Origin: Octopus vulgaris | Lineage: Eukaryota | Assembly: GCA_951406725.2 (NCBI GenBank) | Contig: OX597839.1 | Coordinates: 33,790,001-33,854,000, forward strand | DNA length: 64,000 bases | Direction of reading: 5' to 3' | Shown here: piece by piece, positions 1 to 60,144 of the stretch | Numbering within the stretch: the first letter of the stretch is position 1 | Layout: every line of letters starts with the position of its first letter | Position numbers and translations under genes: made by a program | Notes under the pieces: model-generated | What the model was told of the DNA's origin: nothing | Seen by the model: the letters and a program-made list of their open reading frames with translations, nothing else | The model's database searches: none

Positions 1-65
1 TCAACTCGGAGTTTTTGAAATTGATCCTTAGAAATATAATATACTTGGTCGTCATTCATGCTCAT
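1..65 (-). CDS. 5' end of a type-B CARD(-caspase) gene, running off the window edge
   Basis: Reverse strand reads [21 protein letters not shown], identical to the N-terminus of ORF 7927-9039. Upstream flank is also shared. Confidence 0.85.
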   Translation of the reverse strand, partial: MSMNDDQVYYISKDQFQKLRV

Positions 66-972: not shown

Positions 973-1260
973 TTGATCTAAAAGATCAAATATCTTAAAA
1001 TGTTTCGATTTTTTCAAGGCTGACATCAATTAATCTGAAACATTCGGAAGTTTCTTGAATATATAATCATGTAACTTTCGTATTTGGTGGTCAGTTTTTC
1101 TTTCGGACATTATTCCATTTTTATATCCCTCAGTCAATAAACCATTGGATAAAGCATGATCTAAAAATGATCCGATATCGTCCACGGGTTTTACAAAATA
1201 AACTCGGGTTTGCATAAATCGTTCCATAGAAATATGATCTACTTCTTGTTCACTGCTCAC
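973..1260 (-). pseudogene. Decayed CARD-only copy (type C)
   Basis: GTG stands where paralogs have ATG. In-frame TAA at 1030-1032 replaces a Lys codon. Homology continues (LMSALKKSKHFKIFDLLD) and then stops, with no protease domain. Confidence 0.8.
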
Positions 1261-2313: not shown

Positions 2314-3366
2314 TTAATCTGTGGCTCGAAGAATCACCTTTCTCTTCAAGGTGGAATAACAACTTGAAACCTGATCCTTGGAAATCTCTTTGCATTCCTT
2401 CGAAACTTCTGAATTTATATCAGATGATAATGAAGAGATGTCACATCTATATTTGTTCCTTTCATAAACACTGATTAAACTTTTTATGAAAACAGTACCA
2501 CTTGCCTCAGTTCGGTAAGCCTTGCCTTCTGGAACGGTGGCAAAAGTAACATAGAGATCTGGAACCTTGAAATATTGCCCGATGTATTCCTTTTCAGAAT
2601 TACTTTCGCCAGCGCTGCTACATTCTGCGCCATCCTTGACTTGAATTTCACTTCGACAAGTATTTTCTTTAGTTGAATTAGGTTTAACTTGACAAGTGTT
2701 TACATAAATGAGTTTTGGTTTGTCTTTCAGCTCAGGAGTCTTTAGAATGGTATTAATAGTGGAATAAGATAATTCCTTACCATCAGTTCCAATAATATTC
2801 CCTACAGTCCCATGGGACATCAAGAACATAACGAAACAATCTTCACTGGCTGTACTTTTTCTAGCTTCTTTTGTAATTATATTTTTCATTTCTTCCGCTG
2901 TTTTCTTTTCAGCTTCATCAGAGGTAACTTCGAAGTTGAAAGCCTTGAAAAGTTTTCTGATACCTTTCACATCCATTTCGCTTCCGAGCCTTTTATTGTA
3001 TTTACTCTCATCGTCAAATTTTAAATTGTTTATTAATACAACTCGACCGTGTGGTTTGTTTTTCATCGGGTAGACTGTCACTTCGTCTAAAAGATCAAAT
3101 ATCTTAAAATGTTTCGACTCTTTCAAGGCTGACATCAATTTCTCTGAATCATACGGAAGTTTTTTATGTATATAATCATGTAACTTTCGTGTTTGGTCGT
3201 CAGGATTTCTCTCGGACATTATTCTATTTTCATGTGCCTTAGTCAATAAACCACTGGGCACAGCATAATCTAAAAATGATCTGATATCGTCCATGTGGTC
3301 TATAAATTTAACTCGGATTTCCTTAAATCGTTCCTGAGAAATTTGATGTCCTTGTTCATTGCTCAT
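2314..3366 (-). CDS. CARD-caspase (C14-like), type A, 350 aa, putatively active
   Basis: N-terminal CARD pattern, then YPMKNKPHGRVVLINN, RLGSEMD, FVMFLMSHG (catalytic His), KDKPKLIYVNTCQ (Cys225) and the small-subunit motif DLYVTFATVPEGKAYRT..SGTVFI. Uninterrupted ORF. Confidence 0.93.
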   Translation of the reverse strand: MSNEQGHQISQERFKEIRVKFIDHMDDIRSFLDYAVPSGLLTKAHENRIMSERNPDDQTRKLHDYIHKKLPYDSEKLMSALKESKHFKIFDLLDEVTVYPMKNKPHGRVVLINNLKFDDESKYNKRLGSEMDVKGIRKLFKAFNFEVTSDEAEKKTAEEMKNIITKEARKSTASEDCFVMFLMSHGTVGNIIGTDGKELSYSTINTILKTPELKDKPKLIYVNTCQVKPNSTKENTCRSEIQVKDGAECSSAGESNSEKEYIGQYFKVPDLYVTFATVPEGKAYRTEASGTVFIKSLISVYERNKYRCDISSLSSDINSEVSKECKEISKDQVSSCYSTLKRKVILRATD

Positions 3367-3493: not shown

Positions 3494-3731
3494 GCCGATG
3501 AAATCTGACAATGATATTTATATAGTGACACAGGTATATAAGTATGTGTGTGTGTGTGTGTGTGTGTGCACGCACGTGTGTTTGCGTTATGAATTATAAT
3601 ATGCCATCATTAATTCCTTTCTAGAATAGTAAATAATAAGTAAAAATATAAATATCTCATTTTGCGTTAAGTACGAAAGTGCGGCGTAATGTTTATAGAT
3701 GGTTATTGTCCTTATCTAATAACAAACAACT

Positions 3732-4387: not shown

Positions 4388-4779
4388 CATGTATATATGT
4401 ATGTGTATATATATGTATATAATATATCTATATATATAATATTTATAAATGAGGGTGAAAAATTAATATTAATTTAATAATACCATTAATTTTAACACCG
4501 AGTGGCTTAGCACAAAACCTACGGAGAAAATACAAATTTATACATAAATTATTAGAGAGTTAACCACTAATTTCTATATATATAATATATATATATAACT
4601 TAAAGGCGGTGCTCCAGCATAGCCACAGTCAAATGACTGAAACACGTAAAAAAGTAATATCTCTCTCTCTCTCTATCTGTGTATATATATATATATATAT
4701 ATATCGCCATGTTGATTCGTTAGTTACTGCACGCATTTATTTTTTCTCTCCTTCTTTCTGTGTTTTTTTTCTCTGAGTA

Positions 4780-4817
4780 TCTTTCTGTTGAGGAGCGTAG
4801 GCTCGAAACGTTAAAGA
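4780..4817 (+). ncRNA. Minimal hammerhead-ribozyme-like motif (A6 variant) in a Penelope-like terminal repeat
   Basis: tcttt-CTGTTGA-g-gagc(gtag)gctc-GAAA-cg-TT-aaaga. Confidence 0.45.
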
Positions 4818-4914
4818 CTTGTTTTATTTATATTTCCTGAGCGCCATACTAATACAATTGTTCGTTTGTTTTCCACCTGCCTTCGTCTTTTGTCTATTTT
4901 CATAAAGCTTCCCG

Positions 4915-4971: not shown

Positions 4972-5092
<121 letters not shown>

Positions 5093-5162
5093 GATAGAGA
5101 GAGAGATATTACTTTTTTACATGTTTCAGTCATTTGACTGTGGCTATGCTGGAGCACCGCCT

Positions 5163-5507
5163 TTAAGGTTTAACGTACATACCATCGTTGTTCAATTTCT
5201 TTATATTTTCTGACGGATCGTCTAATAGCTCGAGAATTTCCTTATGGTTTGACTTTTTCAAAGCCGACACAAATTTACGGGACCCATCTAGTAGTTTCTT
5301 ACCTAGGATTTCGTGTAACCGTCGTTTCTGATTGTTAGAATCTCTTTCAGACATTATGCTCTCTTTATGGCTATCAGTCAGCAAACCATTGGATAAAGCT
5401 TCATCTAAAAATGATTTGATATCGTCCATGTGTTTTACAAAATCAACTCGGAGTTTTTGAAATTGATCCTTAGAAATATAAAATACTTGGTCGTCATTCA
5501 TGCTCAT
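5163..5507 (-). CDS. CARD-only protein, 114 aa (type-B CARD, protease domain deleted)
   Basis: First 99 aa match ORF 7927-9039 with 8 substitutions. After DDPS the sequence jumps directly into the caspase 3' flank. ATG and upstream region are intact. Confidence 0.75.
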
Positions 5508-6803
5508 ATAAAGTTCTTAATATGAAAACAATATAAATCTCTAAAAATATCAATTTGTACCTGGAAAAGAAAAAAGCAAAACAGTCCACCCTTTCACTTC
5601 CTGGTTTACGAAGAAAAACGTTTCGGGTAATGTAGTCTGCTCAGTTCGATGACTTCATTAACTGAGCCTAGTTATTTACAAACACATATATTTCATTGGC
5701 TCTTGTTAAATTTCCTTCAACCAATCAAATTTTCTTCAAAGTTCTGGATAGTTTTCCTCTGATGACGTAAATCAGAGTTATTTTTCTCTTAGAAACCAAT
5801 AACAAAGAAACTACAAATATTTAAAGTCATGTCGTTCAAGCGATTAAATAGTTTCACCTGAATACTTTTAGATAATGCGCATTTCACATAGTTCTAACCG
5901 ATTGTGTTACACTGAGAAGATTTGATGTTCGTGGGTCAGCGAAACATGCAACATAAAAATGAAGAGAAAGAAGGAAGCTGTTTCTTACAGATTTTATTTT
6001 CCTGTTAATTCGATGTTACTGTCAGAACACAAAATGCTGTGGCAGTCGGCCGTTTTACAATGCTAAGGGCGAAAATAACAAAGACAAAACGAGAGCACGT
6101 TTGGTAATAACTGCGTCTGTTGCGGATGTTAGGAAGAAGTGATTTGCTAAAAATACTGTGAGTGCGTCGTCTGAAAGCGAAAACGATTGTTACCGAATAT
6201 TCTGAGAGGATTCGTAGTTATACATGTTGGATTGTTGAATGTGGATCGGAGTAGAATGGGAAATGAATTCGCTTATCTCTATTTACCTCTATTTTACCCC
6301 GAAATGCTGAGTTAAACCAATAGAACTTATCTAAGTTTGACGGTCGAACTTGGAATGTTTCAGACGAGTTGATGTCAGCCTTGAAAAAGTCATGTCATGC
6401 GTGTGTGTGTGTCTGTGTGTTTGGAGAAGGGGAGAGAGACAAAAAGAGAAAAGGGGAAATAAAAATAAGGGAGGAAGGGGAAAAAAATTGTGTTGATATT
6501 TATACCACAACATATATATACACAGACTTATACATGAAATATTTGAAAAAAAAAACTTTTATCGGTTCAAAATGAACAACTAAATTACACCATCTTGAAA
6601 ATTGTATATCATAGGAAAGTTAAAATTAAAGTGACAATTAAAAAGTGAAGATGGAAGTAAATTATAAAAATATAAAAATAACATAATGTATATAACTGGC
6701 AATGTATATATATATATACACACACACATATATATACATATAGAGACATATACTAAATGTTCTACTATATTAGATTGTAAATCGAAAAATGTGTCCTTCA
6801 ATG

Positions 6804-7456: not shown

Positions 7457-7926
7457 TATTTAATGATCTGAGATCTTCCTGGTCTCGTTTGCTTCTTTTA
7501 AGCCATCACGACCAAGGTCATGCTGGAGCAAAAACCGCCTATTTAGCGTATAGCAACTTGGCTTTTCTACAGTAGAGGCGTGAGACTGCTACAGTTACCT
7601 CCCTTGCACTCGACCGGAATGCAGTGGAATCTATTTGGTTTCCAATCGCATAAAACAACAACAACTTCTCAAGGAATTCAAAAGAAATATCGTTTGTAAT
7701 TTATAAAATGAAATAAAGTTCTGCAGAGAATGGTGTCTGATAAGTCCCCCTCTTTAAATTGTTGGCTTTGTACCGAAATCAGAAATACTTATTAGTCAGG
7801 TGAAGTGGAATCCAAGAATAACAGATTAGGTTGTGGATGGAGGCGAATTTGGAAAGGTTTAACGTACATACCATTGTTGTTCAATTTCTTTATATTTTAA
7901 TGAGAGAAGGAGAAGAGAGAATTAGG

Positions 7927-9039
7927 TTAATCTGTGGCTCGAAGAATCACCTTTCTCTTCAAGGTGGAATAACAACTTGAAACCTGATCCATGTTAATCT
8001 CTTTGAATTCCTTCGAAACTTTTGATTTTATATCAAGTGATAATGATGAGATGTCACATCTATCTTTGTTCCTTTCATAAACACTGATTAGACTTTTTAT
8101 GAAAAAAGAACCGCTTTCCTCAGTTCGGTAAGCAAGGCCTTCTGGAACGGAGGCAAAAGTAACATAGAGATCTGGAACGTTGAAATATTGCCCGATGTAT
8201 TCCTTTTCAGAATTACTTTCGACAGCGCTGCTACATTCTGCGTCAACTTTGACTTGAGTTTCACTTCGACAAGTATTTTCTTTAGTTGAAGAAGCGTCGG
8301 TGCCTTTCGGGATATTATCCTTCTCATGTTTAAATTGATAAGTATTTACATAAATGAGCTTTGGTTTGTCTTTCAGCGGAGACCTCTTCTCTGGATCGTC
8401 GTTAATAGTGTCCTTTAGAGCGTCGTTAATAGTGGAATAAGATAATTCCTTACCATCAGTTCCAATGATACTCCCTCTAACACCATGTGACATCAAGAAC
8501 ATAACGAAACAATCTTCACGGGCTGTACTTTCCTGCGATGCTTTCTCAATTATTCCTTCCATTTCCTCGGCCGTTTTATTAGAATAAAGTTGAACTTCGA
8601 AATTGAAAGCCTTGAAAAGTTTCGTGATACCTTCCACATCCTTTTCGCTTCCGAGCCTTTCATTGTATTTACTCCCAACGGGAAATTTCACATTATTTAT
8701 TAATATAACACGACCATGAAGTTTGAATTTCATCGGGTAGACTGACGGATCGTCTAATAGCTTGAGAATTTCCTTATGGTTTGACTTTTTCAAAGCCGAC
8801 ACAAATTTACGGGACCCATCCGGTAGTTTCTTACCTAGGATTTCGTGTAACCGTCGTTTCTGATTGTTAGAATCACTTTCAGACATTATGCTCTCTTTAT
8901 TGCTATTAGTCAGCAAACCATTGGATAAAGCTTCATCTAAAAATGATTCGATATCGTCCATGAGTTTTACAAAATCAACTCGGAGTTTTTGAAATTGATC
9001 CTTAGAAATATAATATACTTGGTCGTCATTCATGCTCAT
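7927..9039 (-). CDS. CARD pseudo-caspase, type B, 370 aa (catalytic Cys replaced by Tyr)
   Basis: Full caspase motif set including SHG, but KPKLIYVNTYQF; codon TAT at 8338-8340 where paralogs have TGT. Confidence 0.9.
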   Translation of the reverse strand: MSMNDDQVYYISKDQFQKLRVDFVKLMDDIESFLDEALSNGLLTNSNKESIMSESDSNNQKRRLHEILGKKLPDGSRKFVSALKKSNHKEILKLLDDPSVYPMKFKLHGRVILINNVKFPVGSKYNERLGSEKDVEGITKLFKAFNFEVQLYSNKTAEEMEGIIEKASQESTAREDCFVMFLMSHGVRGSIIGTDGKELSYSTINDALKDTINDDPEKRSPLKDKPKLIYVNTYQFKHEKDNIPKGTDASSTKENTCRSETQVKVDAECSSAVESNSEKEYIGQYFNVPDLYVTFASVPEGLAYRTEESGSFFIKSLISVYERNKDRCDISSLSLDIKSKVSKEFKEINMDQVSSCYSTLKRKVILRATD

Positions 9040-10161
9040 ATAAAGTTCTTAATATGAAAACAATATAAATCTCTAAAAATATCAATTTTTACCTGGAAAA
9101 GAAAAAAGCAAAACAGTCCACCCTTTCACTTCCTGGTTTACGAAGTGAAACGTTTCGGGTAATGTAGTCTGCTCAGTTCGATGACTTCATTAACTGAGCC
9201 TAGTTATTTACAAACACATATATTTCATTGGCTCTTGTTAAATTTCCTTCAACCAATCAAATTTTCTTCAAAGTTCTGGATAGTTTTCCGCTGATGACGT
9301 AAATCAAAGTTATTTTTACTCTTAGAAACCAATAACAAAGAAACTACAAATATTTAAAGTCATGTCATTTAAGCGATTAAATAGTTTCACCTGAATACTT
9401 TTAGAAAATGCGCATTTCACATAGTTCTAACCGATTGTGTTACACTGAGAAGATTTGATGTTCGTGGGTCAGCGAAACATGCAATATAAAAATGAAGAGA
9501 AAGAAGGAAGCTGTTTCTTACAGATTTTATTTTCCTGTTAATTCGATGTTACTGTCAGAACACAAAATGCTGTGGCAGTCGGCCGTTTTACAATGCTAAG
9601 GGCGAAAATAACAAAGACAAAACGAGAGCATGTTTGGTAATAACTGCGTCTGTTGCGGATGTTAGGAAGAAGTGATTTTCTAAAAATACTGTGAGTGCGT
9701 CGTGTGAAAGTGAAAACGATTGTTACCGAATATTCTGAGAGGATTCGTAGTTATACATGTTGGATTGTTGAATGTGGATCGGAGTAGAATGGGAAACGAA
9801 TTCGCTTATCTCCATTTACCTCTATTTTACCCCGAAATGCTGAGTTAAACAATAGAACTTATCTAAGTTTGACGGTCGAACTTGGAATGTTTCAGACGAG
9901 TTGATGTCAGCCTTGAAAAAGTCATGTCATGCGTGTGTGTGTGTCTGTGTGTGTGTGTCTGTGTGTTTGGAGAAGGGGAGAGAGACAAAAAGAGAAAAGG
10001 GAAACTAAAAATAAGGGATTAAGGGGAAAAAAATTGTGTTGATATTTATACCACAACATATATATACACAGACTTATACATGAAATATTTGGAAAAAAAC
10101 CTTTTATTGGTTCAAAATGAACAACTAAATTACACCATCTTGAAAATTGTATATCATAGGA

Positions 10162-10257
10162 AAATGATCCGAGATCGTCCACGTGTTTTACAAAATAAAC
10201 TCGGATTTGCATAAATCGTTCCTGAGAAATATGATGTACTTCTTGTTCACTGCTCAC
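10162..10257 (-). pseudogene. Truncated type-C CARD remnant
   Basis: GTG start, SSEQEVHHISQERFMQIRVYFVKHVDDLGSF, then fused to unrelated sequence also present at ~6400-6617. Confidence 0.8.
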
Positions 10258-11322: not shown

Positions 11323-12364
11323 TTAATCTGTGGCTCGAAGAATCACCTTTCTCTTCAAGGTGGAATAACAACTTGAAACCTGATCCTTGGAAATCTCTTT
11401 GCATTCCTTCGAAACTTCTGAATTAATATCAGATGATAATGAATGAGATGTCACATCTATCTTTGTTCCTTTCATAAACACTGATTAGACTTTTTATGAA
11501 AAAAGAACCACTTTCCTCAGTTCGGTAAGCAAGGCCTTCTGGAACGGTGGCAAAAGTAACATAGAGATCTGGAACGTTGAAATATTGATCGGGGTGTTCC
11601 TTTTCAGAATTACTTTCGCCAGCGCTGCTACATTCTGCGCCATCCTTGACTTGAATTTCACTTCGACAAGTATTTTCTTTAGTTGAATTAGGTTTAACTT
11701 GACAAGTATTTACATAAATGAGTTTTGGTTTGTCTTTCAGCTCAGGAGTCTTTAGAATGGTATTAATAGTGGAATAAGATAATTCCTTACCATCAGTTCC
11801 AATGATATTCCCTACAGTCCCATGGGACATCAAGAACATAACGAAACAGTCTTCACTGGCTGTACTTTTTTTAGCTTCTTTTGTAATTATATTTTTCATT
11901 TCTTCCGCTGTTTTATTTTTAGCTTCTTTGAAGTTGAAAGCCTTGAAAAGTTCCGTGATACCTTTCACATCCTTTTCGCTTCCGAGCCTTTTCTTGTATT
12001 TCTTCTTATCGTCAAATTCTAAATTATTTATTAATACAACTCGACCGTGTGGTTTGTTTTTCATCGGGTAGACTGTCACTTCGTCTAAAAGATCAAATAT
12101 CTTAAAATGTTTCGACTCTTTCAAGGCTGACATCAATTTCTCTGAATCATACGGAAGTTTTTTATATATATAATCATGTAACTTTCGTGTTTGGTCGTCA
12201 GAATTTGTTTTGGACATTATTTCATTTTCATGTCCCTTAGTCAATAAACCACTGGGCACAGCAAAATCTAAAAATGATCTGATATCGTCCATGTGTTCTT
12301 TAAAATCAACTCGGATTTGCATAAATCGTTGCTGAGAAATTTTATGTCCTTGTTCATTGTTCAT
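11323..12364 (-). CDS. CARD-caspase type A' with +1 frameshift near 11443 (pseudogene, truncated protein or assembly error)
   Basis: The 311-aa ORF has SHG and NTCQ (Cys221). The missing C-terminus (..KRKVILRATD*) is intact in another frame down to 11323. Confidence 0.85.
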
Positions 12365-12731
12365 GTTTGTATAAGATTATAGATGTTAAATCAAGAGAAA
12401 TCTGTAAAAATTATCAATTTTCACTGAGAAAATAAAGTTCAACAGTTTCACTTCCTGGTTTGCGAAGGCAAAAATGTTACGTGTGACGTCAGCCGATGAA
12501 ATCTGACAATGATATTTATATAGTGACACAGGTATATAAGTATGTGTGTGTGTGTGTGCACGCACGTGTGTTTGCGTTATGAATTATAATATGCCATCAT
12601 TAATTCCTCTCTACAATAGTAAATAATAAGTAAAAATATAAATATCTCATTTTGCGTTAAGTACGAAAGTGCGGCGTAATGTTTATAGATGGTTATTGTC
12701 CTTATCTAATAACAAACAACTCGTCTGTCTC

Positions 12732-13293
12732 GTTGGCCAGACGTGATTAATGGGACAGTCGGACAGACGTTGGCCAGACGTTGGCCAGACGTGATTAAAG
12801 GGAAAGTCGGACAGACGTTGGCCAGACGTGATTAAAGGGTCAGTCGGACAGACGTTGGCCAGACGTGATTAAAGGGACAGTCGGACAGACGTTGGCCAGA
12901 CGTGATTAAAGGGACAGTCGGACAGACGTTGGCCAGACGTGATTAAAGGGTCAGTCGGGCAGACGTTGGCCAGACGTGATTAAAGGGACAGTCGGACAGA
13001 CGTTGGCCAGACGTGATTAAAGGGACAGTCGGACAGACGTTGGCCAGACGTGATTAATGGGTCAGTCGGACAGACGTGATTAAAGGGTCAGTCGGACAGA
13101 CGTTGGCCAGACGTGATTAACGGGACAGTCGGACAGACGTTGGCCAGACGTGATTAAAGGGTCAGTCGGACAGACGTTGGCCAGACGTGATTAATGGGTC
13201 AGTCGGACAGACGTTGGACAGACGTTGGCCAGACGTGATTAAAGGGACAGTCGGACAGACGTTGGCCAGACGTGATTAAAGGGTCAGTCGGCG
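12732..13293. repeat. 37-bp minisatellite, long array (~15 units)
   Basis: Same unit as 3732-3895, expanded. Confidence 0.92.
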
Positions 13294-13586: not shown

Positions 13587-13794
13587 CTATATATATATGT
13601 GTACATATGTATGTGTATATATATGTATATAATATATCTATATATATAATATATATATATATCTTAAAGGCGGTGCTCCAGCATAGCCACAGTCAAATGA
13701 CTGAAACATGTAAAAAAGTAATATCTCTCTCTCTCTCTCTGTATATATATATACATATATAACATATATATTTATATGTGTGTGTGTGTGTGTG

Positions 13795-23244: not shown

Positions 23245-24186
23245 TTAAATTGTGGCTCGAAGTATCACCTTTTTCTTCAAAGTGTTATAACTACTTGAAA
23301 TCTGACCAGATTCCTTGGGAATTTGAGCATGTATTTTAGGGGATAGTGAGTTGACGTCACACTTTTCTTTGTTCTTTTCATAAACACTGATTAAACTTTC
23401 GATGAAAACAGAACCACTTTCCTCAGTTCGGAAAGCCAAGTGTTCGGGAACAGTGGCAAAAGCAACATACAGATCTGCAACGTTGAAATATTCATTTTTC
23501 TTATCAGAACTAACTTGACAAGTGTTTATATAAATGAGTTTTGGTTTGTCTTTCAGCTCAGGAGTCTTTAGAATGGTATTAATAGTGGAATAAGATAATT
23601 CCTTACCATCTTTTCCAATAATATTCCCTATGGCCCCATGGGACATCAAGAACAAGACGAAACAATCTTCATTGGCTGTAGTTTTCTTAGCTTCTATTTC
23701 AATTATATATTCCATTTCCTTTGCCGTTCTATCTTTATAAGTTAGAACATCAAAACTGAACTCCTCGAAAAGTTTTTTAATACCCACCACATCCTTTTCG
23801 CTTCCGATCCTTTCTTTGTAATTCTTCCCATCGTCAAACTCTATATTATTTATTATTACAACACGCCCGTGTGGCTTAAACTTCATCGGGTAGACTTCTG
23901 GATCGTCTAATAACTCAAGTATTTGATCATGATTTGACTTTTTCAAGGCCGACACAAATTTCTCGGACCCATCCGGTAGCTTCCTTAATATATAATCATG
24001 CAACTGCCGTGCTTGATCGTAAACATTTTGCAGGGCTCCTATTCCCTGTTTATGTCCATCGGCCAATAAACCATTTGCCAAAGCTTCGTCGAGAAAGGAA
24101 TCGATATCGTCCATGGATTTTACAAATTTAACTCGGATTTTTACAAATTGTGCTTTAGAAATATGATGCATTCGTTCGGCGCTCAT
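23245..24186 (-). CDS. Divergent CARD-caspase type D, 313 aa, short inter-subunit linker
   Basis: CARD, YPMKFKPHGRVVIINN, RIGSEKD, FLMSHG, KPKLIYINTCQ (Cys223), DLYVAFATVPEHLAFRT. Uninterrupted ORF. Confidence 0.93.
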   Translation of the reverse strand: MSAERMHHISKAQFVKIRVKFVKSMDDIDSFLDEALANGLLADGHKQGIGALQNVYDQARQLHDYILRKLPDGSEKFVSALKKSNHDQILELLDDPEVYPMKFKPHGRVVIINNIEFDDGKNYKERIGSEKDVVGIKKLFEEFSFDVLTYKDRTAKEMEYIIEIEAKKTTANEDCFVLFLMSHGAIGNIIGKDGKELSYSTINTILKTPELKDKPKLIYINTCQVSSDKKNEYFNVADLYVAFATVPEHLAFRTEESGSVFIESLISVYEKNKEKCDVNSLSPKIHAQIPKESGQISSSYNTLKKKVILRATI

Positions 24187-35862: not shown

Positions 35863-38800
35863 CTAGCAGTATCGCCCGGCGTTGCTCGGGTGTGTGTAAG
35901 GGAAATAACTATATAAGCATTTTTAGAGAGTTATAGCCAAAAAAATAGCAAAAAAATGCATTGAAAATGGAAAAAAAATGGTTTATTTTTTTTTAAATCG
36001 TTGACTCATTGTAGACATTTTTAGAGAGTTACTTCCCTTAAATAATAGCGAAAAAATGCATTGAAAATGCAAAAAAATCACGGTAAATTTTTTTAAATCG
36101 TTGACTCATCGTAGACATTTTTAGAGAGTTACTTCCCTTAAATAATAGCGGAAAAAATGCATTGAAAATGGAAAAAATGATGGTAAATTTTTTTTAAATC
36201 GTTGACTCATCGTAGACATTTTTAGAGAGTTACTTCCCTTAATTAATAGCGAAAAAATGCATTAAAATGGAAAAAATGATAGTAAATTATTTTTAAAATC
36301 GTTGACATTTTTAGAGAGTTACTTCCCTTATATAATAGCGAAAAAAATGCATTGAAAATGGAAAAAAATGATGGTAAATTTTTTTTTAAATCGTAGACTC
36401 ATTGTAGACATTTTTAGAGAGTTACTTCCCTTAAATAATAGCGAAAAAAATGGATTGAAAATGGAAAAAAATGATAGTAAATTTTTTTTTAAATCGTAGA
36501 CTCATCGTAGACATTTTTAGAGAGTTACTTCCCTTAAATAATAGCGAAAAAAATGCATTGAAAATGGAAAAAAATGATGGTAAATTTTTTTTTAAATCGT
36601 TGACTCATCGTAGACATTTTTAGAGAGTTACTTCCCTTATATAATTACGAAAAAAATGCATTGAAAATGCAAAAAAAAACGGTAAATTTTTTTTAAATCG
36701 TTGACTCATCGTAGACATTTTTAGAGAGTTACTTCCCTTAAATAATAGCGGAAAAAATGCATTGAAAATGGAAAAAATGATAGTAAATTATTTTTAAAAT
36801 CGTAGACATTTTTAGAGAGTTACTTCCCTTATATAATAGCGAAAAAAATGCATTGAAAATGGAAAAAAATGATGGTAAATTTTTTTTTAAATCGTAGACT
36901 CATTGTAGACATTTTTAGAGAGTTACTTCCCTTAAATAATAGCGAAAAAAATGGATTGAAAATGGAAAAAAATGATAGTAAATTTTTTTTTAAATCGTAG
37001 ACTCATCGTAGACATTTTTAGAGAGTTACTTCCCTTAAATAATAGCGAAAAAAATGCATTGAAAATGGAAAAAAATGATGGTAAATTTTTTTTTAAATCG
37101 TTGACTCATCGTAGACATTTTTAGAGAGTTACTTCCCTTATATAATTACGAAAAAAATGCATTGAAAATGCAAAAAAAAACGGTAAATTTTTTTTAAATC
37201 GTTGACTCATCGTAGACATTTTTAGAGAGTTACTTCCCTTATATAATTACCAAAAAATGCATTGAAAATGCAAAAAAATCACGGTAAATTTTTTTTAAAT
37301 CGTTGACTCATCGTAGACATTTTTAGAGAGTTACTTCCCTTAAATAATAGCGGAAAAAATGCATTGAAAATGGAAAAAATGATGGTAAATTTTTTTAAAT
37401 CGTTGACTCATCGTAGACATTTTTAGAGAGTTACTTCCCTTAATTAATAGCGAAAAAATGCATTAAAATGGAAAAAATGATAGTAAATTATTTTTAAAAT
37501 CGTTGACATTTTTAGAGAGTTACTTCCCTTATATAATAGCGAAAAAAATGCATTGAAAATGGAAAAAAATGATGGTAAATTTTTTTTTAAATCGTAGACT
37601 CATTGTAGACATTTTTAGAGAGTTACTTCCCTTAAATAATAGCGAAAAAAATGGATTGAAAATGGAAAAAAATGATAGTAAATTTTTTTTTAAATCGTAG
37701 ACTCATCGTAGACATTTTTAGAGAGTTACTTCCCTTAAATAATAGCGAAAAAAATGCATTGAAAATGGAAAAAAATGATGGTAAATTTTTTTTTAAATCG
37801 TTGACTCATCGTAGACATTTTTAGAGAGTTACTTCCCTTATATAATTACGAAAAAAATGCATTGAAAATGCAAAAAAAAACGGTAAATTTTTTTTAAATC
37901 GTTGACTCATCGTAGACATTTTTAGAGAGTTACTTCCCTTAAATAATAGCGGAAAAAATGCATTGAAAATGGAAAAAATGATAGTAAATTATTTTTAAAA
38001 TCGTAGACATTTTTAGAGAGTTACTTCCCTTATATAATAGCGAAAAAAATGCATTGAAAATGGAAAAAAATGATGGTAAATTTTTTTTTAAATCGTAGAC
38101 TCATTGTAGACATTTTTAGAGAGTTACTTCCCTTAAATAATAGCGAAAAAAATGGATTGAAAATGGAAAAAAAGTGATAGTAAATTTTTTTTTAAATCGT
38201 AGACTCATCGTAGACATTTTTAGAGAGTTACTTCCCTTAAATAATAGCGAAAAAAATGCATTGAAAATGGAAAAAAATGATGGTAAATTTTTTTTTAAAT
38301 CGTTGACTCATCGTAGACATTTTTAGAGAGTTACTTCCCTTATATAATTACGAAAAAAATGCATTGAAAATGCAAAAAAAAACGGTAAATTTTTTTAAAT
38401 CGTTGACTCATCGTAGACATTTTTAGAGAGTTACTTCCCTTAAATAATAGCGGAAAAAATGCATTGAAAATGGAAAAAATGATAGTAAATTATTTTTAAA
38501 ATCGTAGACATTTTTAGAGAGTTACTTCCTTATATAATAGCGAAAAAATGCATTGAAAATGGAAAAAAATGATGGTAAATTTTTTTTTAAATCGTAGACT
38601 CATTGTAGACATTTTTAGAGAGTTACTTCCCTTAAATAATAGCGAAAAAAATGGATTGAAAATGGAAAAAAATGATAGTAAATTTTTTTAAATCGTAGAC
38701 TCATCGTAGACATTTTTAGAGAGTTACTTCCTTAAATAATAGCGGAAAAAATGCATTGAAAATGGAAAAATGATGAGTAAATTTTTTTAAATCGTTGACT

Positions 38801-39250
38801 CATCGTAGACATTTTTAGAGAGTTACTTCCCTTAATTAATAGCGAAAAAATGCATTAAAATGGAAAAAATGATAGTAAATTATTTTTAAAATCGTAGACA
38901 TTTTTAGAGAGTTACTTCCCTTATATAATAGCGAAAAAAATGCATTGAAAATGGAAAAAAATGATGGTAAATTTTTTTTTAAATCGTAGACTCATCGTAG
39001 ACATTTTTAGAGAGTTACTTCCCTTATATAATAGCGAAAAAATGCATTAAAATGGAAAAAAATGATAGTAAATTATTTTTAAAATCGTAGACTCATCGTC
39101 GACGCGCGCTAATACCTAGAAGGGCTCGATATGAATCACAACTATAAGATACCCGGTTTTGGTTAAACTGCACTGCAAAATGTGGGAGTAGTTAGGAATC
39201 TAAATCGTAGGAGACAGACACTCACACAACCTCACTTTTATATATAAAAA
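35863..39250 (-). mobile_element. Non-autonomous Helitron carrying a ~100-bp satellite
   Basis: Minus-strand 3' end cccgagcaacgccgggcgatactgCTAG|t (hairpin plus CTAG). 5' end ttatatataaaagtgagg..tgtctgtc. Internal tandem array ~35915-39100. Confidence 0.8.
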
Positions 39251-40214: not shown

Positions 40215-41128
40215 ATTGTCGATGTTATCGACCCTGGATGAACGAGAGGTAGAGTTGATTTCGGCTGGGTTCCAACTCAGAACGTAAAGAACAAGGTAAA
40301 AATACGGTGGTTTATTATCGACCCTGGTTGAAAAAAAGGTAGAGTTGACTTCGACTGGGTTCGAACTCAGAACGTAAAGAACAAGGTAAAAATACCGTGG
40401 TTTATTACCGACCCCGGACGAACGAAAGGCAAAAGTTGACTTCGGCTGGGTTCGAACTCAGAACGTAAAGAACAAGGTAAAAATACGGTTGTTTATTATC
40501 GACCCTGGTTGAAAAAAAGGTAGAGTTGACTTCGACTGGGTTCGAACTCAGAACGTAAAGAACAAGGTAAAAATACAGTGGTTTATTATCGACCCTGGTT
40601 GAAAAAAAGGTAGAGTTGACTTCGACTGGGTTCGAACTCAGAACGTAAAGAACAAGGTAAAAATACCGTGGTTTATTATCGACCCCGGACGAACGAAAGG
40701 CAAAAGTTGATTTCGGCTGGGTTCGAACTCAGAACGTAAAGAACAAGGTAAAAATACGGTGGTTTATTATCGACCCTGGTTGAAAAAAAGGTAGAGTTGA
40801 CTTCGACTGGGTTCGAACTCAGAACGTAAAGAACAAGGTAAAAATACGGTGGTTTATTATCGACCCTGGTTGAAAAAAAGGTAGAGTTGACTTCGACTGG
40901 GTTCGAACTCAGAACGTAAAGAACAAGGTAAAAATACCGTGGTTTATTATCGACCCCGGACGAACGAAAGGCAAAAGTTGACTTCGGCTGGGTTCGAACT
41001 CAGAACGTAAAGAACAAGGTAAAAATACCGCGGTTTATTATCGACCCTGGACGAACGAAAGGTAGAGTTGACTTCGGCTGGGTTCGAACTCAGAACGTAA
41101 AGAACTAGGTAAAAATACGGCGGTTTAT
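40215..41128. repeat. ~91-bp tandem array derived from SINE family 2 (~10 units)
   Basis: Unit ttatcgaccc..gttgacttcg.ctgggttcgaactcagaacgtaaagaacaagg. Confidence 0.85.
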
Positions 41129-41629
41129 TAATCCGGCAGGTGAAAAGGTGAGTAGCATAGGTTGCAGAAATTTACGAAAGCCAAACCCCAGCAGAAAAAA
41201 AGTTGGATTGAGGAAGAAACGGAAGGACATTTTGATGAGGAGAGGCAGAGAGCAAACGGCTGGGAACTTCCAAAGCAGACGTCTTGGACACGTGCTTGCT
41301 GGTTCCTGGGAAGAAAATTGCCAACCTTCATTCTTCCTTTCTCTCTCTCTTTTCTTTTAGGAGTGAATGTGTCTGTGTGTGTGTTTCTGTGCGTGTGTGT
41401 GTGTGTTTCTGTGCTTATCTGTGTGTGTGTGTGTGACTGCGTGTTGCGCTTCTATTCATTCACCCCTCTTGCTCCTCCTCCTCCTCCTCCTTCCATTCTC
41501 CCGCTCCTCCCCTCCTCGTCTGCTTTCTCCCGTTCTCCCGCTCCTCCTCCTCCTTTTTTCTCTAATTCTCCCGCTCCTCCTCCTTTTTTCTCCCATTCTC
41601 CCCCTCCTCCTCATTTTAATTTTTTTTTT

Positions 41630-47600: not shown

Positions 47601-47757
47601 AGTGTTGCTTTGTTGCCATGGTAACGTGACACTTTGAGGCACGCATTTGCGAAAGGAGTCGCATTTGAGTCACGAAATTTCAACAGTGAAATTGCCAAAT
47701 TTTATTTGTTGTCCTTGTTAAATTTTTATCTTAAGTGCAAATCATTCAGTGTTGGAG

Positions 47758-47794
<37 letters not shown>

Positions 47795-47909
47795 ATAGGT
47801 AGAATTTAGGCCACAAAACTTGTCAGTAAAGACCATGTTTGAAAAAACTGAGGCCATATTTACACTTCAGCTTCTCATTGTGGTCCACGGACAAACACCG
47901 TTGACCACT

Positions 47910-49605
47910 TATTTCTTTATTGCCCACATGGGGCTAAACATAGAGGGGACAAACAAGGACAGACAAAGGGATTAAGTCGATTACATCGACCCCCAGTGCA
48001 TAACTGGTACTTGATTTATCGACCCTGAAAGGATAGAAGGCAAAGTCGACCTCGGCGGAATTTGAACTCAGAACGTAAAGACAGATGAAATGCCTATTTC
48101 TTTATTGCCCACAAGGGGCTAAACACAGAGAGGATAAACAAGGACAGATAAAAGGGATTAAGTTGATTACATCGACCCCAGTGCGTAACTGGTACTTAAT
48201 TTATCGACCCCGAAAGGATGAAAGGCAAAGTCGACCTCAGCGGAAACTGAACTCAGAACAAAACGGCAGACGAAATACCTATTTCTTTACTACCCACAAG
48301 TGTAATCATTCAGTGTCGGAGGCAAGTGTGTGTGTGTGTGTGTAATAGGAAGAATTTAGGCCACAAAACTTGTCAGTAAAGACCATGTTTGAAAAAACTG
48401 AGGCCATATTTACACTTCTCATTGTGCACCACAGACAAACGCTGTTGACCACTTATTTCTTTATTGCCCACAAGGGGCTAAACATAGAGGGGACAAACAA
48501 GGACAGACAAAGGGATTAAGTCGATTACATCGACCCCCAGTGCATAACTGGTACTTGATTTATCGACCCTGAAAGGATAGAAGGCAAAGTCGACATCGGC
48601 GCAATTTGAACTCAGAACGTAAAGACAGATGAAATGCCTATTTCTTTATTACCCACAAGGGGCTAAACATAGAGGGGACAAACAAGGACAGACAAAGAGA
48701 TTAAGTCGATTACATCGACCCCCAGTGCATAACTGGTACTTAATTTATCGACCCCGAAAGGATGAAAGGCAAAGTCGACCTCGGCGGAATTTGAACTCAG
48801 AACGTAAAGACAGATGAAATGCCTATTTCTTTATTACCCACAAGGGGCTAAACATAGAGGGGACAAACAAGGACAGACAAAGAGATTAAGTCGATTACAT
48901 CGACCTCAGTGCATAACTGGTACTTGATTTATCGACCCTGAAAGGATAGAAGGCAAAGTCGACCTCGGCGGAATTTGAACTCAGAACGTAAAGACAGATG
49001 AAATGCCTATTTCTTTATTACCCACAAGGGGCTAAACATAGAGGGGACAAACAAGGACAGACAAAGAGATTAAGTCGATTACATCGACCTCAGTGCATAA
49101 CTGGTACTTGATTTATCGACCCCGAAAGGATGAAAGGCAAAGTCGACCTCGGCGGAATTTGAACTCAGAACGTAAAGACAGATGAAATGCCTATTTCTTT
49201 ATTACCCACAAGGGGCTAAACACAGAGGGGACAAACAAGGACATACAAAGAGATTAAGTCGATTACATCGACCCCAATGCATAACTGGTACTTAATTTAT
49301 CGACCCCGAAAGGATGAAAGGCAAAGTCGACCTCGGCGGAATTTGAACTCAGAACGTAAAGACAGATGAAATGCCTATTTCTTTATTACCCACAAGAAGC
49401 TAAACATAGAGGGGACAAACAAGGACATACAAAGAGATTGTCGATTACATCGACCCCAATGCATAACTGGTACTTAATTTATCGACCCCGAAAGGATGAA
49501 AGGCAAAGTCGACCTCGGCGGAATTTGAACTCAGAACGTAACGGCAGACGAAATACTGCTAAGCATTTCACCCGGTGTGCTAACACTTCTGCCACTTCGC
49601 CGCCT
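47910..49605 (-). repeat. Head-to-tail array of ~179-bp SINE family 2 bodies ending in one complete head
   Basis: Repeated tatttctttattacccacaagg...ctcagaacgtaaagacagatgaaatgcc. Includes a duplicated flank (47740-47910 and 48300-48455). Confidence 0.88.
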
Positions 49606-58692: not shown

Positions 58693-59311
58693 CATACACA
58701 CACACATGCAAAACACATATACATACATACAGATGCACACACATACACATGCACACACACATACAGATAAGTGTAGACACAGTTGGTCAACCTGCTGGAA
58801 ATAGCAAGCTCGGGGCTAAAGTGGAAGATACTTTGCCCAAGGTGCCACACAGTAAGACTGAACCTGAAACCACACGGTTTGCAAAGCGGGTTTGTTAACA
58901 ACGCAACCACTACCACATGTCTGCGTACACACACACCCACACACACACCTCTTAGTCCCTCTCTCCTCTCCTCTCCTCTCCTATTAGTTATCCATGCACT
59001 TTTCACTATTGTTGCTATTTTTCTTCACTTACTATTTCACTCCCTCTGTTCCCTGGTTTTACCCTCTTCTGATGATATCTGTAGGTCTGTGTGTGTGTGT
59101 GTGTGTTGTGTGTGCAACTATTAATTTGCCTGTACGGCTTTACGCATGGGGCCGCTAACATTATTTTTAGAAATATTGTTCTTTTATATACATCATATCT
59201 ATATCTATATATCTATATCTATATATCTATATATATATATATCTATCTATATATACATCTATCTATATATACATCTATCTATATATACATCTATCTATAT
59301 ACATCTATCTA

Positions 59312-59848
<537 letters not shown>

Positions 59849-59869
59849 ATCTATATATATATATCTATA

Positions 59870-59933
<64 letters not shown>

Positions 59934-60144
59934 ATATGTATATATCTATGAGTGGATGTGGTAGAGGGAAACTGAAATGAAGCCCCTTGTGTGTATGCAC
60001 ACACACACACACACACACACACGTATATATTTGCGTCTTCTCCTCTGTGTTTGTCCCCCACCCCCGCCAGTGCTTGACAACCGATGCTGATGTCTTTACA
60101 TCCCCCCCCCCCCGTAACTTAGCAGTTCAGCAAAAGAGACCGAT

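Follow-up and report, generated by a model that had tools for sequence, protein, structure and literature searches.

A CARD-only open reading frame formed by loss of the protease domain in a tandem CARD-caspase cluster of Octopus vulgaris

Introduction

Is a caspase gene that has lost its entire protease domain a regulator of its sister genes, or a by-product of the turnover of the cluster in which it lies? This question is raised by an open reading frame on the minus strand at 5163-5507 of the window, the stretch of 64,000 nucleotides of Octopus vulgaris contig OX597839.1 that was analysed and in whose numbering all coordinates are given. A first-pass annotation had proposed that this frame encodes a COP/ICEBERG-like dominant-negative regulator.

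Catalytically dead or truncated regulators of the caspase type include cFLIP, truncated human caspase-12 and C. elegans CSP-3. The truncated caspase-12 results from a premature stop, according to the accessible part of its source (bioRxiv 10.1101/2025.06.19.660630). In humans, the genes CARD16, CARD17 and CARD18 adjoin caspase-1, arose by duplication and undergo gene conversion and loss, and their products can cap, compete with or promote filaments, as described in the available text of three sources (PMC7555848, PMC11383037, PMC11874512).

Molluscs are reported to be without Apaf-1 and caspase-9, and a whole-family tree places Octopus Y1/Y2 outside the clade of CARD-caspases; the accessible text of the same study describes no CARD-only member and no cluster (PMC10959488). 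The available part of another paper mentions CARD-caspases of squid and CARD/DED proteins without names, but not this cluster (PMC9389742). Among the literature listed by our searches, outside which most subscription papers lie, no paper dealt with this cluster or described a CARD-only gene of caspase origin from a mollusc. Here, we describe the structure, origin and relatives of the octopus CARD-only copy and weigh the accounts that may explain it.

The CARD-only open reading frame and its upstream region

Read from ATG to TAA on the minus strand, 5163-5507 encodes a protein of 114 amino acids (P0001) composed of a complete CARD followed by a 15-residue disordered tail. The Pfam CARD model PF00619 scored 26.7 bits over residues 16-94, above its cut-off of 23.9, and the same scan found no caspase or Peptidase_C14 domain, the CARD being the sole domain. 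With respect to the features of the caspase-Y1-like family, the homologous CARD is present and the His-Cys caspase domain is deleted. The exact 114-residue sequence was absent from the protein collection searched.

The copy derives from, and clusters with, a CARD-caspase. The segment 5210-5507 (-) corresponds to codons 1-99 of an A-type CARD-caspase and differs from 8743-9039 at 9 of 297 letters (97% DNA identity). The DNA upstream of the gene is also held in common: 5508-6618 (-) was co-duplicated with the gene and matches 9040-10163, the whole of 5210-6618 being 96.6% identical to 8742-10163. The earlier statement that the upstream region is intact was confirmed, with 15 of 891 aligned letters different between 5508-6399 and 9040-9931. 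Downstream, the tail is encoded by a 45-nt piece of caspase 3' flank at 5165-5209 (-), of which 44 of 45 letters are the same as in 7854-7898 and the last three are common with the adjoining repeat. Both the stop codon and the beginning of the 3' UTR come from 5062-5167 (-), where the tail of a local dispersed repeat lies inverted together with its flanking microsatellite (95% identity over 106 nt to 4599-4704). Two AATAAA hexamers within 4736-4828 (-), 334 and 421 nt past the stop, are candidate poly(A) signals.

A candidate promoter element of 12 nt, GGAAGTGAA on the gene strand, lies at 5593-5604 (-) and recurs about 90 nt upstream of all eight CARD starts in the window, at positions 151, 1351, 3449, 5593, 9125, 10350, 12447 and 24273; seven occurrences are identical and one has a single change. 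The motif is conserved even among paralogues that are only about 70% alike. In its letters it is presumably similar to a composite site of the ETS or ETS-IRF type, a likeness that hints at immune-type control of the cluster.

Junctions and origin of the rearrangement

At the first junction, identity to the gene at 7927-9039 ends at 5210 (equivalent to 8742) and identity to its 3' flank reaches 5209 (equivalent to 7898). This join is blunt, with neither microhomology nor insert, and removes 7899-8741, a loss of 843 bp that ends 28 nt beyond the normal stop codon. The first-pass annotation had described a deletion of the whole protease domain that joins the CARD end near 5210 to sequence some 30 nt past the stop; the mapping agrees on both counts, and no protease match is left. 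An origin by splicing or retrocopying was ruled out for this junction, as its ends are not GT-AG.

At the second junction, the repeat tail begins at 5167, which gives a 3-nt microhomology with the flank piece. The TAA of the CARD-only frame is formed here: the three shared letters contribute one of its bases, and the repeat contributes the other two. The inverted tail is identical to 13663-13734 (+) at 72 of 72 letters and to 4599-4670 (+) at 71 of 72, and the window contains 19 matches to it, itself included. The repeat, which had been called a SINE, is presumably one, the name being an assumption; the position of the stop and the inversion relative to the local copies were both borne out. 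A fresh retrotransposon insertion was ruled out, and the repeat tail is copied local DNA, because its start point and downstream microsatellite flank are shared with the local copies.

The structure shows that an A-type copy, its upstream DNA retained, lost 843 bp through a blunt join, followed by a switch on 3 nt of microhomology into an inverted copy of the neighbouring repeat tail. We infer that template-switching or end-joining repair produced this rearrangement.

Presence in sequencing runs and annotated gene models

Assembled contigs from four sequencing runs (X1 of study P1, X2 of study P2, X8 and X19) were compared over 5104-5900. Both junctions were present letter for letter in contigs of two of the four runs, from two studies: a contig of 104 nt in X1 (5136-5239, depth 12) and one of 103 nt in X2 (5137-5239, depth 4.1), neither with any difference or gap. 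Each holds the first junction, a private letter of the flank, the stop codon and the second junction. These short contigs reach 30 letters into the CARD and 28-29 letters into the part that is repeat alone, below the 31-letter bridging rule; contigs assembled from 31-mers should overlap by just this much, and we take the junction support from X1 and X2 as good though not rule-passing. Absence of junction-spanning reads had been named beforehand as one outcome that would count against the proposal, and junction contigs were found in two runs of two studies. The junction is thus unlikely to be an assembly error. For X8 and X19, no junction piece occurred among the pieces listed (read to 76% and 80%), which says nothing on its absence.

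A second X1 contig (5210-5559) abuts the junction contig and carries the letters of the CARD-only copy throughout, except at codon 73, where it reads Pro as do the other paralogues; it may stem from an allele of the CARD-only copy or else from one of the full-length sisters. The single X19 contig at this codon also reads Pro. From 5563 on, X1 and X2 were uncovered in 13 of 13 bins, X8 covering 5 and X19 covering 10, a weak hint that X1 and X2 represent transcripts that start or are spliced near 5560, their status as RNA being a guess. The CARD-only copy is probably transcribed.

A wider run search detected part of the stretch in 20 of 24 rows and half or more of its 41 words in 8, across 10 studies; none of the rows was recorded as RNA, and organisms B and C shared at most 0.49. 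Of these rows, only the four runs compared above were used as evidence. These shares can stem from paralogues, because 126 of the 391 31-mers of the stretch (about a third) recur elsewhere in the window.

The public model at this locus, P0025 (CAI9741488.1), has 71 amino acids and the same N-terminus as P0001, and its end fits a donor at 5302 with an acceptor near 3620, the only matching acceptor below 5400. No joint at 5302 was listed in any of the four runs, in which contigs drop rare forms, and the X1 contig 5210-5559 passes the donor unspliced. The CARD-only finding would correct this 71-residue gene model. Other models (P0004 and P0027 of O. vulgaris; P0006, P0007 and P0016 of O. sinensis) have CARD halves spliced onward through donor 5302/8834, or join the CARD and protease of different paralogues. 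Such cross-copy models may stem from reads mapped to the wrong copy, from back-splicing, or from genuine read-through of one tandem copy into another.

The surrounding cluster

The minus strand from 1 to 24,200 holds a tandem cluster of CARD-caspases whose coding regions are single ORFs. A Pfam CARD and a Peptidase_C14 domain were each found in 2314-3366, 7927-9039, 11429-12364 and 23245-24186. The first of these is a B-type CARD-caspase of 350 residues and the last a more distant member of 313 residues, both with the catalytic His and Cys present. The B-type copy at 11429-12364 (-) has a frameshift near 11445 that removes its last 40 or so residues. The start of a further A-type copy runs off the window at 1-65 (-). 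A search with the 370-residue protein of 7927-9039 (P0002) gave 22 matches among 2,823 candidates, 20 named as Octopus (O. vulgaris, O. sinensis, O. bimaculoides) and two encoded in the window. One match, P0022 (E 6.6e-97), lies in a 90% cluster with XP_014790087.1, the O. bimaculoides 'Casp. Y1' in the accessible text of Krasovec et al. (PMC10959488). By these sequence matches the cluster is the octopus 'caspase-Y1' family, which also occurs in O. sinensis and Argonauta.

The full-length A-type copy at 7927-9039 (-) keeps the SHG motif and carries Tyr for the catalytic Cys in an alignment with caspase-8, a pseudo-caspase feature that the first-pass annotation, which used this gene for comparison, had overlooked. 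At the catalytic position of 27 caspase proteins, 20 have Cys, five have only Tyr, one fused model has both and one was unmatched by the pattern. The full-length, open-frame Tyr members are 7927-9039, P0003, P0008, P0026, P0027 and, from O. bimaculoides, P0011; the close O. sinensis models have Cys. The Tyr members could form a pseudo-caspase subgroup and are perhaps better regulator candidates than the CARD-only copy. Across the cluster, the catalytic-site motif is NTCQ, NTCE or NACx in place of the usual QACxG, with SHG kept. A 24-nt tandem duplication at 8397-8434 adds eight in-frame residues to P0002 just before its catalytic-site strand.

Two further CARD remnants lie within 5 kb of the CARD-only copy. 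That at 976-1260 (-) is a dead CARD-only remnant with GTG for ATG, a stop at codon 77 and a fold-back junction at the CARD end; that at 10162-10257 (-) also begins with GTG and is cut after about 32 codons, the first third. The loss of the ATG is common to both and their junctions differ, so that this loss probably preceded the breaks. Because the two remnants share the lost start codon, a break at the CARD end can evidently persist in a dead gene. The junction at 976-1260 contains a short fold-back (hairpin) insert, and the O. sinensis counterpart of this remnant is annotated as the CARD of a 307-residue caspase (P0014) with no internal stop.

Tandem arrays occupy other parts of the window, at 35918-39103, 40225-41130, 47740-49556, 59185-59951 and 12731-13291, with periods of about 100, 90, 185, 52 and 37 nt respectively. 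The array at 59.2-59.9 kb also matches its own inverted sequence.

Divergence and relatives of the CARD-only copy

Eight codons had been reported to differ between the CARD and that of 7927-9039, all of them amino-acid-changing. The counts are right, and they comprise nine nucleotide changes, eight nonsynonymous and one synonymous, with two in codon 73. Given 238 nonsynonymous and 59 synonymous sites, 1.8 synonymous changes are expected and the probability of at most one among nine is 0.44. Positive selection, which 'eight of eight codons' might suggest, was ruled out, as the ratio of 8 to 1 fits neutrality; the gene is too young for purifying selection to show with nine changes, and neutrality is not proven. 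Divergence of the CARD (9/297) was also compared with that of the upstream region (15/891; Fisher P=0.16). Seven of the eight differing residues are found in other paralogues. Only Leu73 is unique, this position being Pro in 20 of 20 relatives, and other alleles may be undamaged here, because neither the X1 nor the X19 contig carries Leu73.

The CARD of P0001 differs at 8-15 residues (85-92% identity) from five other A-type CARDs of O. vulgaris and O. sinensis and from the last CARD of P0004. In a tree of 24 rows built from the CARD parts only, it falls within the A-type clade (support 94/91), a clade of seven rows with no branching order inside. Because the residues are shared among paralogues and the clade has no inner order, the direct parent may be a gene other than that at 7927-9039, and the differences are uninformative on adaptation.

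Among the annotated proteins of other species we found no orthologue consisting of a CARD alone, a search that unannotated or fragmented copies would escape. The only short relative found was P0025, from this same locus, as one of three candidates of 62-200 residues with the protein query and one of 260 of 53-174 residues with a profile of five window CARDs. This profile gave 79 matches among 1.84 billion representatives, the close single-CARD caspases being those of Octopus and Argonauta. Four short matches (140-153 residues) of the 79 were examined and rejected, since two are fish CARD proteins and two are unnamed, by name not CARD-only genes of the octopod family. An O. vulgaris protein of 205 residues with two CARDs, P0036 (CAI9738021.1), matched the CARD profile of the cluster with an E value of 1.4e-13 and is a possible adaptor candidate.

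Predicted fold

AlphaFold2 with 21 sequences gave P0001 a mean pLDDT of 76.6, with a helical bundle at residues 13-96 and a low-confidence tail (residues 98-114, mostly below 50). The six-helix model matches CARD structures; the top Foldseek ranks were the CARDs of Apaf-1 and caspase-9 (TM 0.82 by target, rmsd 1.8 Å, E 0.013), ICEBERG ranking 50th, and no match reached E ≤ 0.001 though the top ranks were CARDs. According to this model, the CARD of P0001 should fold. The model merges helices 4 and 5 into a single run when residue 73 is Leu and separates them when it is Pro, a difference too slight to mean misfolding. A complex prediction for the CARDs of P0001 and P0010 scored 0.00, with alignments unused and controls unfolded, and counts neither way.

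Discussion

In our view, the CARD-only copy is a truncation product that the cluster's birth-and-death turnover has left behind; it is young, real and probably transcribed, with no selected role yet. We give this reading a probability of about one half. With a single coding exon, one break in the linker between CARD and protease would leave a CARD with a random tail under the parent promoter. The transcript would be expected to escape splice-dependent decay, because the stop sits in the only coding exon with no splice junction downstream. If translated, the CARD could passively compete for CARD partners of the A-type sisters, and the copy would drift as do the other broken copies nearby. The neutral-compatible changes and the residues shared with paralogues are consistent with this account, as are the length of the tail, which equals the median of 347 random joins, and the fact that the sole private change in the assembly hits the conserved Pro. 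Decay and rearrangement of the neighbours, seen in the Cys-to-Tyr change, the frameshift of 11429-12364 and the dead CARD remnants, point the same way. Against it, the break falls in a linker of only about 3.5% of the coding length and leaves the domain whole, with start, frame, upstream motif and stop intact. The last 25 or so codons are identical in two other samples. Primate COPs, moreover, also have pseudogenes for neighbours, undergo homogenisation through gene conversion and frequently disappear, and they are functional all the same, according to the accessible text of PMC11383037.

The account that survives next best, which we hold only tentatively, is a working COP-like decoy, co-expressed from the same promoter, that would bind the A-type CARDs or their activating platform and lower activation of the Cys-bearing sisters. 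As the full-length neighbour at 7927-9039 is catalytically dead, its targets would have to be sisters such as P0010 or the last part of P0004. Such a role would accord with the complete predicted fold, with its best matches to Apaf-1 and caspase-9, with the closeness to the A-type sister CARDs, and with the probable transcription of a junction and stop common to two studies. The layout, a CARD and short tail beside the parent, is that of human CARD16 in the available text of PMC7555848, and the several Tyr pseudo-caspases kept in O. vulgaris and O. bimaculoides may signal a demand for non-catalytic members. Set against this are the dead remnants close by, the lack of an orthologue among the annotated proteins searched, and a ratio of changes that gives no selection signal and has little power, together with the reported lack of Apaf-1 and caspase-9 in molluscs. 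Of the regulator first proposed, the anatomy, foldable CARD, upstream DNA and junction contigs thus stand, while its function found no sign in the neutral changes, the annotated proteins, the dead remnants or the pseudo-caspase sister. COP/ICEBERG is an analogy and not a relationship, and any effect could run in either direction.

An effect in the opposite direction, in which the copy would act as a CARD-only nucleator or scaffold promoting assembly of sister caspases, is improbable. Its CARD is nearly that of the parent, with no surface clearly lost, and CARD16 and CARD18 promote polymerisation or filaments of the caspase-1 CARD in vitro, as given in the accessible text of PMC7555848 and PMC11383037. 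The three human COPs nevertheless inhibit in vivo, as the latter states citing its reference 23, and polymerisation of these octopus CARDs is a presumption.

There is a similarly slim chance that a full-length gene exists at this locus and segregates with the deletion as one of its alleles, or that the main product is the 71-residue spliced form. The shared start of P0025 and P0001 and the fit of the P0025 end to its donor and sole acceptor would agree with the latter. For an allele speak the break of the X1 CARD contig at the junction, the presence of the full-length 3' flank in the same run, and the lack of junction pieces among those listed for the large runs X8 and X19, which are incompletely read and so mute on this point. 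The unspliced X1 contig and the lack of a listed 5302 joint argue against the spliced form. An assembly artefact, conceivable where the junction adjoins a TA tract of about 180 nt and an inverted repeat with 4599-4704, is largely refuted by the two contigs without differences that carry both junctions and the private letter, and by an inverted piece closer to 13663 than to the adjacent 4599 copy, unlike a fold-back read.

The primate parallel is close in design. Like CARD16 (COP1/Pseudo-ICE), CARD17 (INCA) as well as CARD18 (ICEBERG), the octopus copy is a CARD with a short tail that came from and lies beside a parent caspase, within a cluster that shows duplications as well as gene conversion and pseudogenes, and with a parent-like promoter (PMC7555848 and PMC11383037, accessible parts). 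Unlike these, it arose independently in a cephalopod caspase family, not by descent from vertebrate caspase-1, and through one deletion in a single-exon coding region with a templated inversion, not by exon duplication; it is apparently confined to one species so far. The octopus 'caspase-Y1' of the lophotrochozoan caspase-Y group belongs to the same family, yet only full-length CARD-caspases are listed in the available text of PMC10959488. The class of cFLIP, caspase-12 and CSP-3 likewise consists of paralogues with a recruitment part and no activity, and the octopus Tyr sisters resemble it more closely than does the CARD-only copy; cFLIP, however, uses DEDs, and none of the three is related by descent.

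A broader proposal is that the caspase-Y cluster independently evolved the design of the primate caspase-1 locus, with active caspases, Tyr pseudo-caspases, a new-born CARD-only decoy and a shared ETS-IRF-like promoter; with coding regions of one exon, a single deletion would be enough to make a regulator. We regard this as somewhat doubtful.

Conclusions

The CARD-only copy is a plausible lead and not a demonstrated regulator. Should it prove not to be a decoy, it would be a mapped example of how the raw material for such regulators arises. If it is one, the literature searched would hold no earlier case of a COP derived from a caspase in an invertebrate; this one would have been caught at its birth and reached by another route than in primates, through a single deletion in a gene with one exon, and it would offer a small soluble bait for the Apaf-1-independent activation platform of mollusc CARD-caspases. 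CARD-only inhibitors, which have been described as a primate feature, would then arise convergently wherever CARD-caspases expand in tandem.
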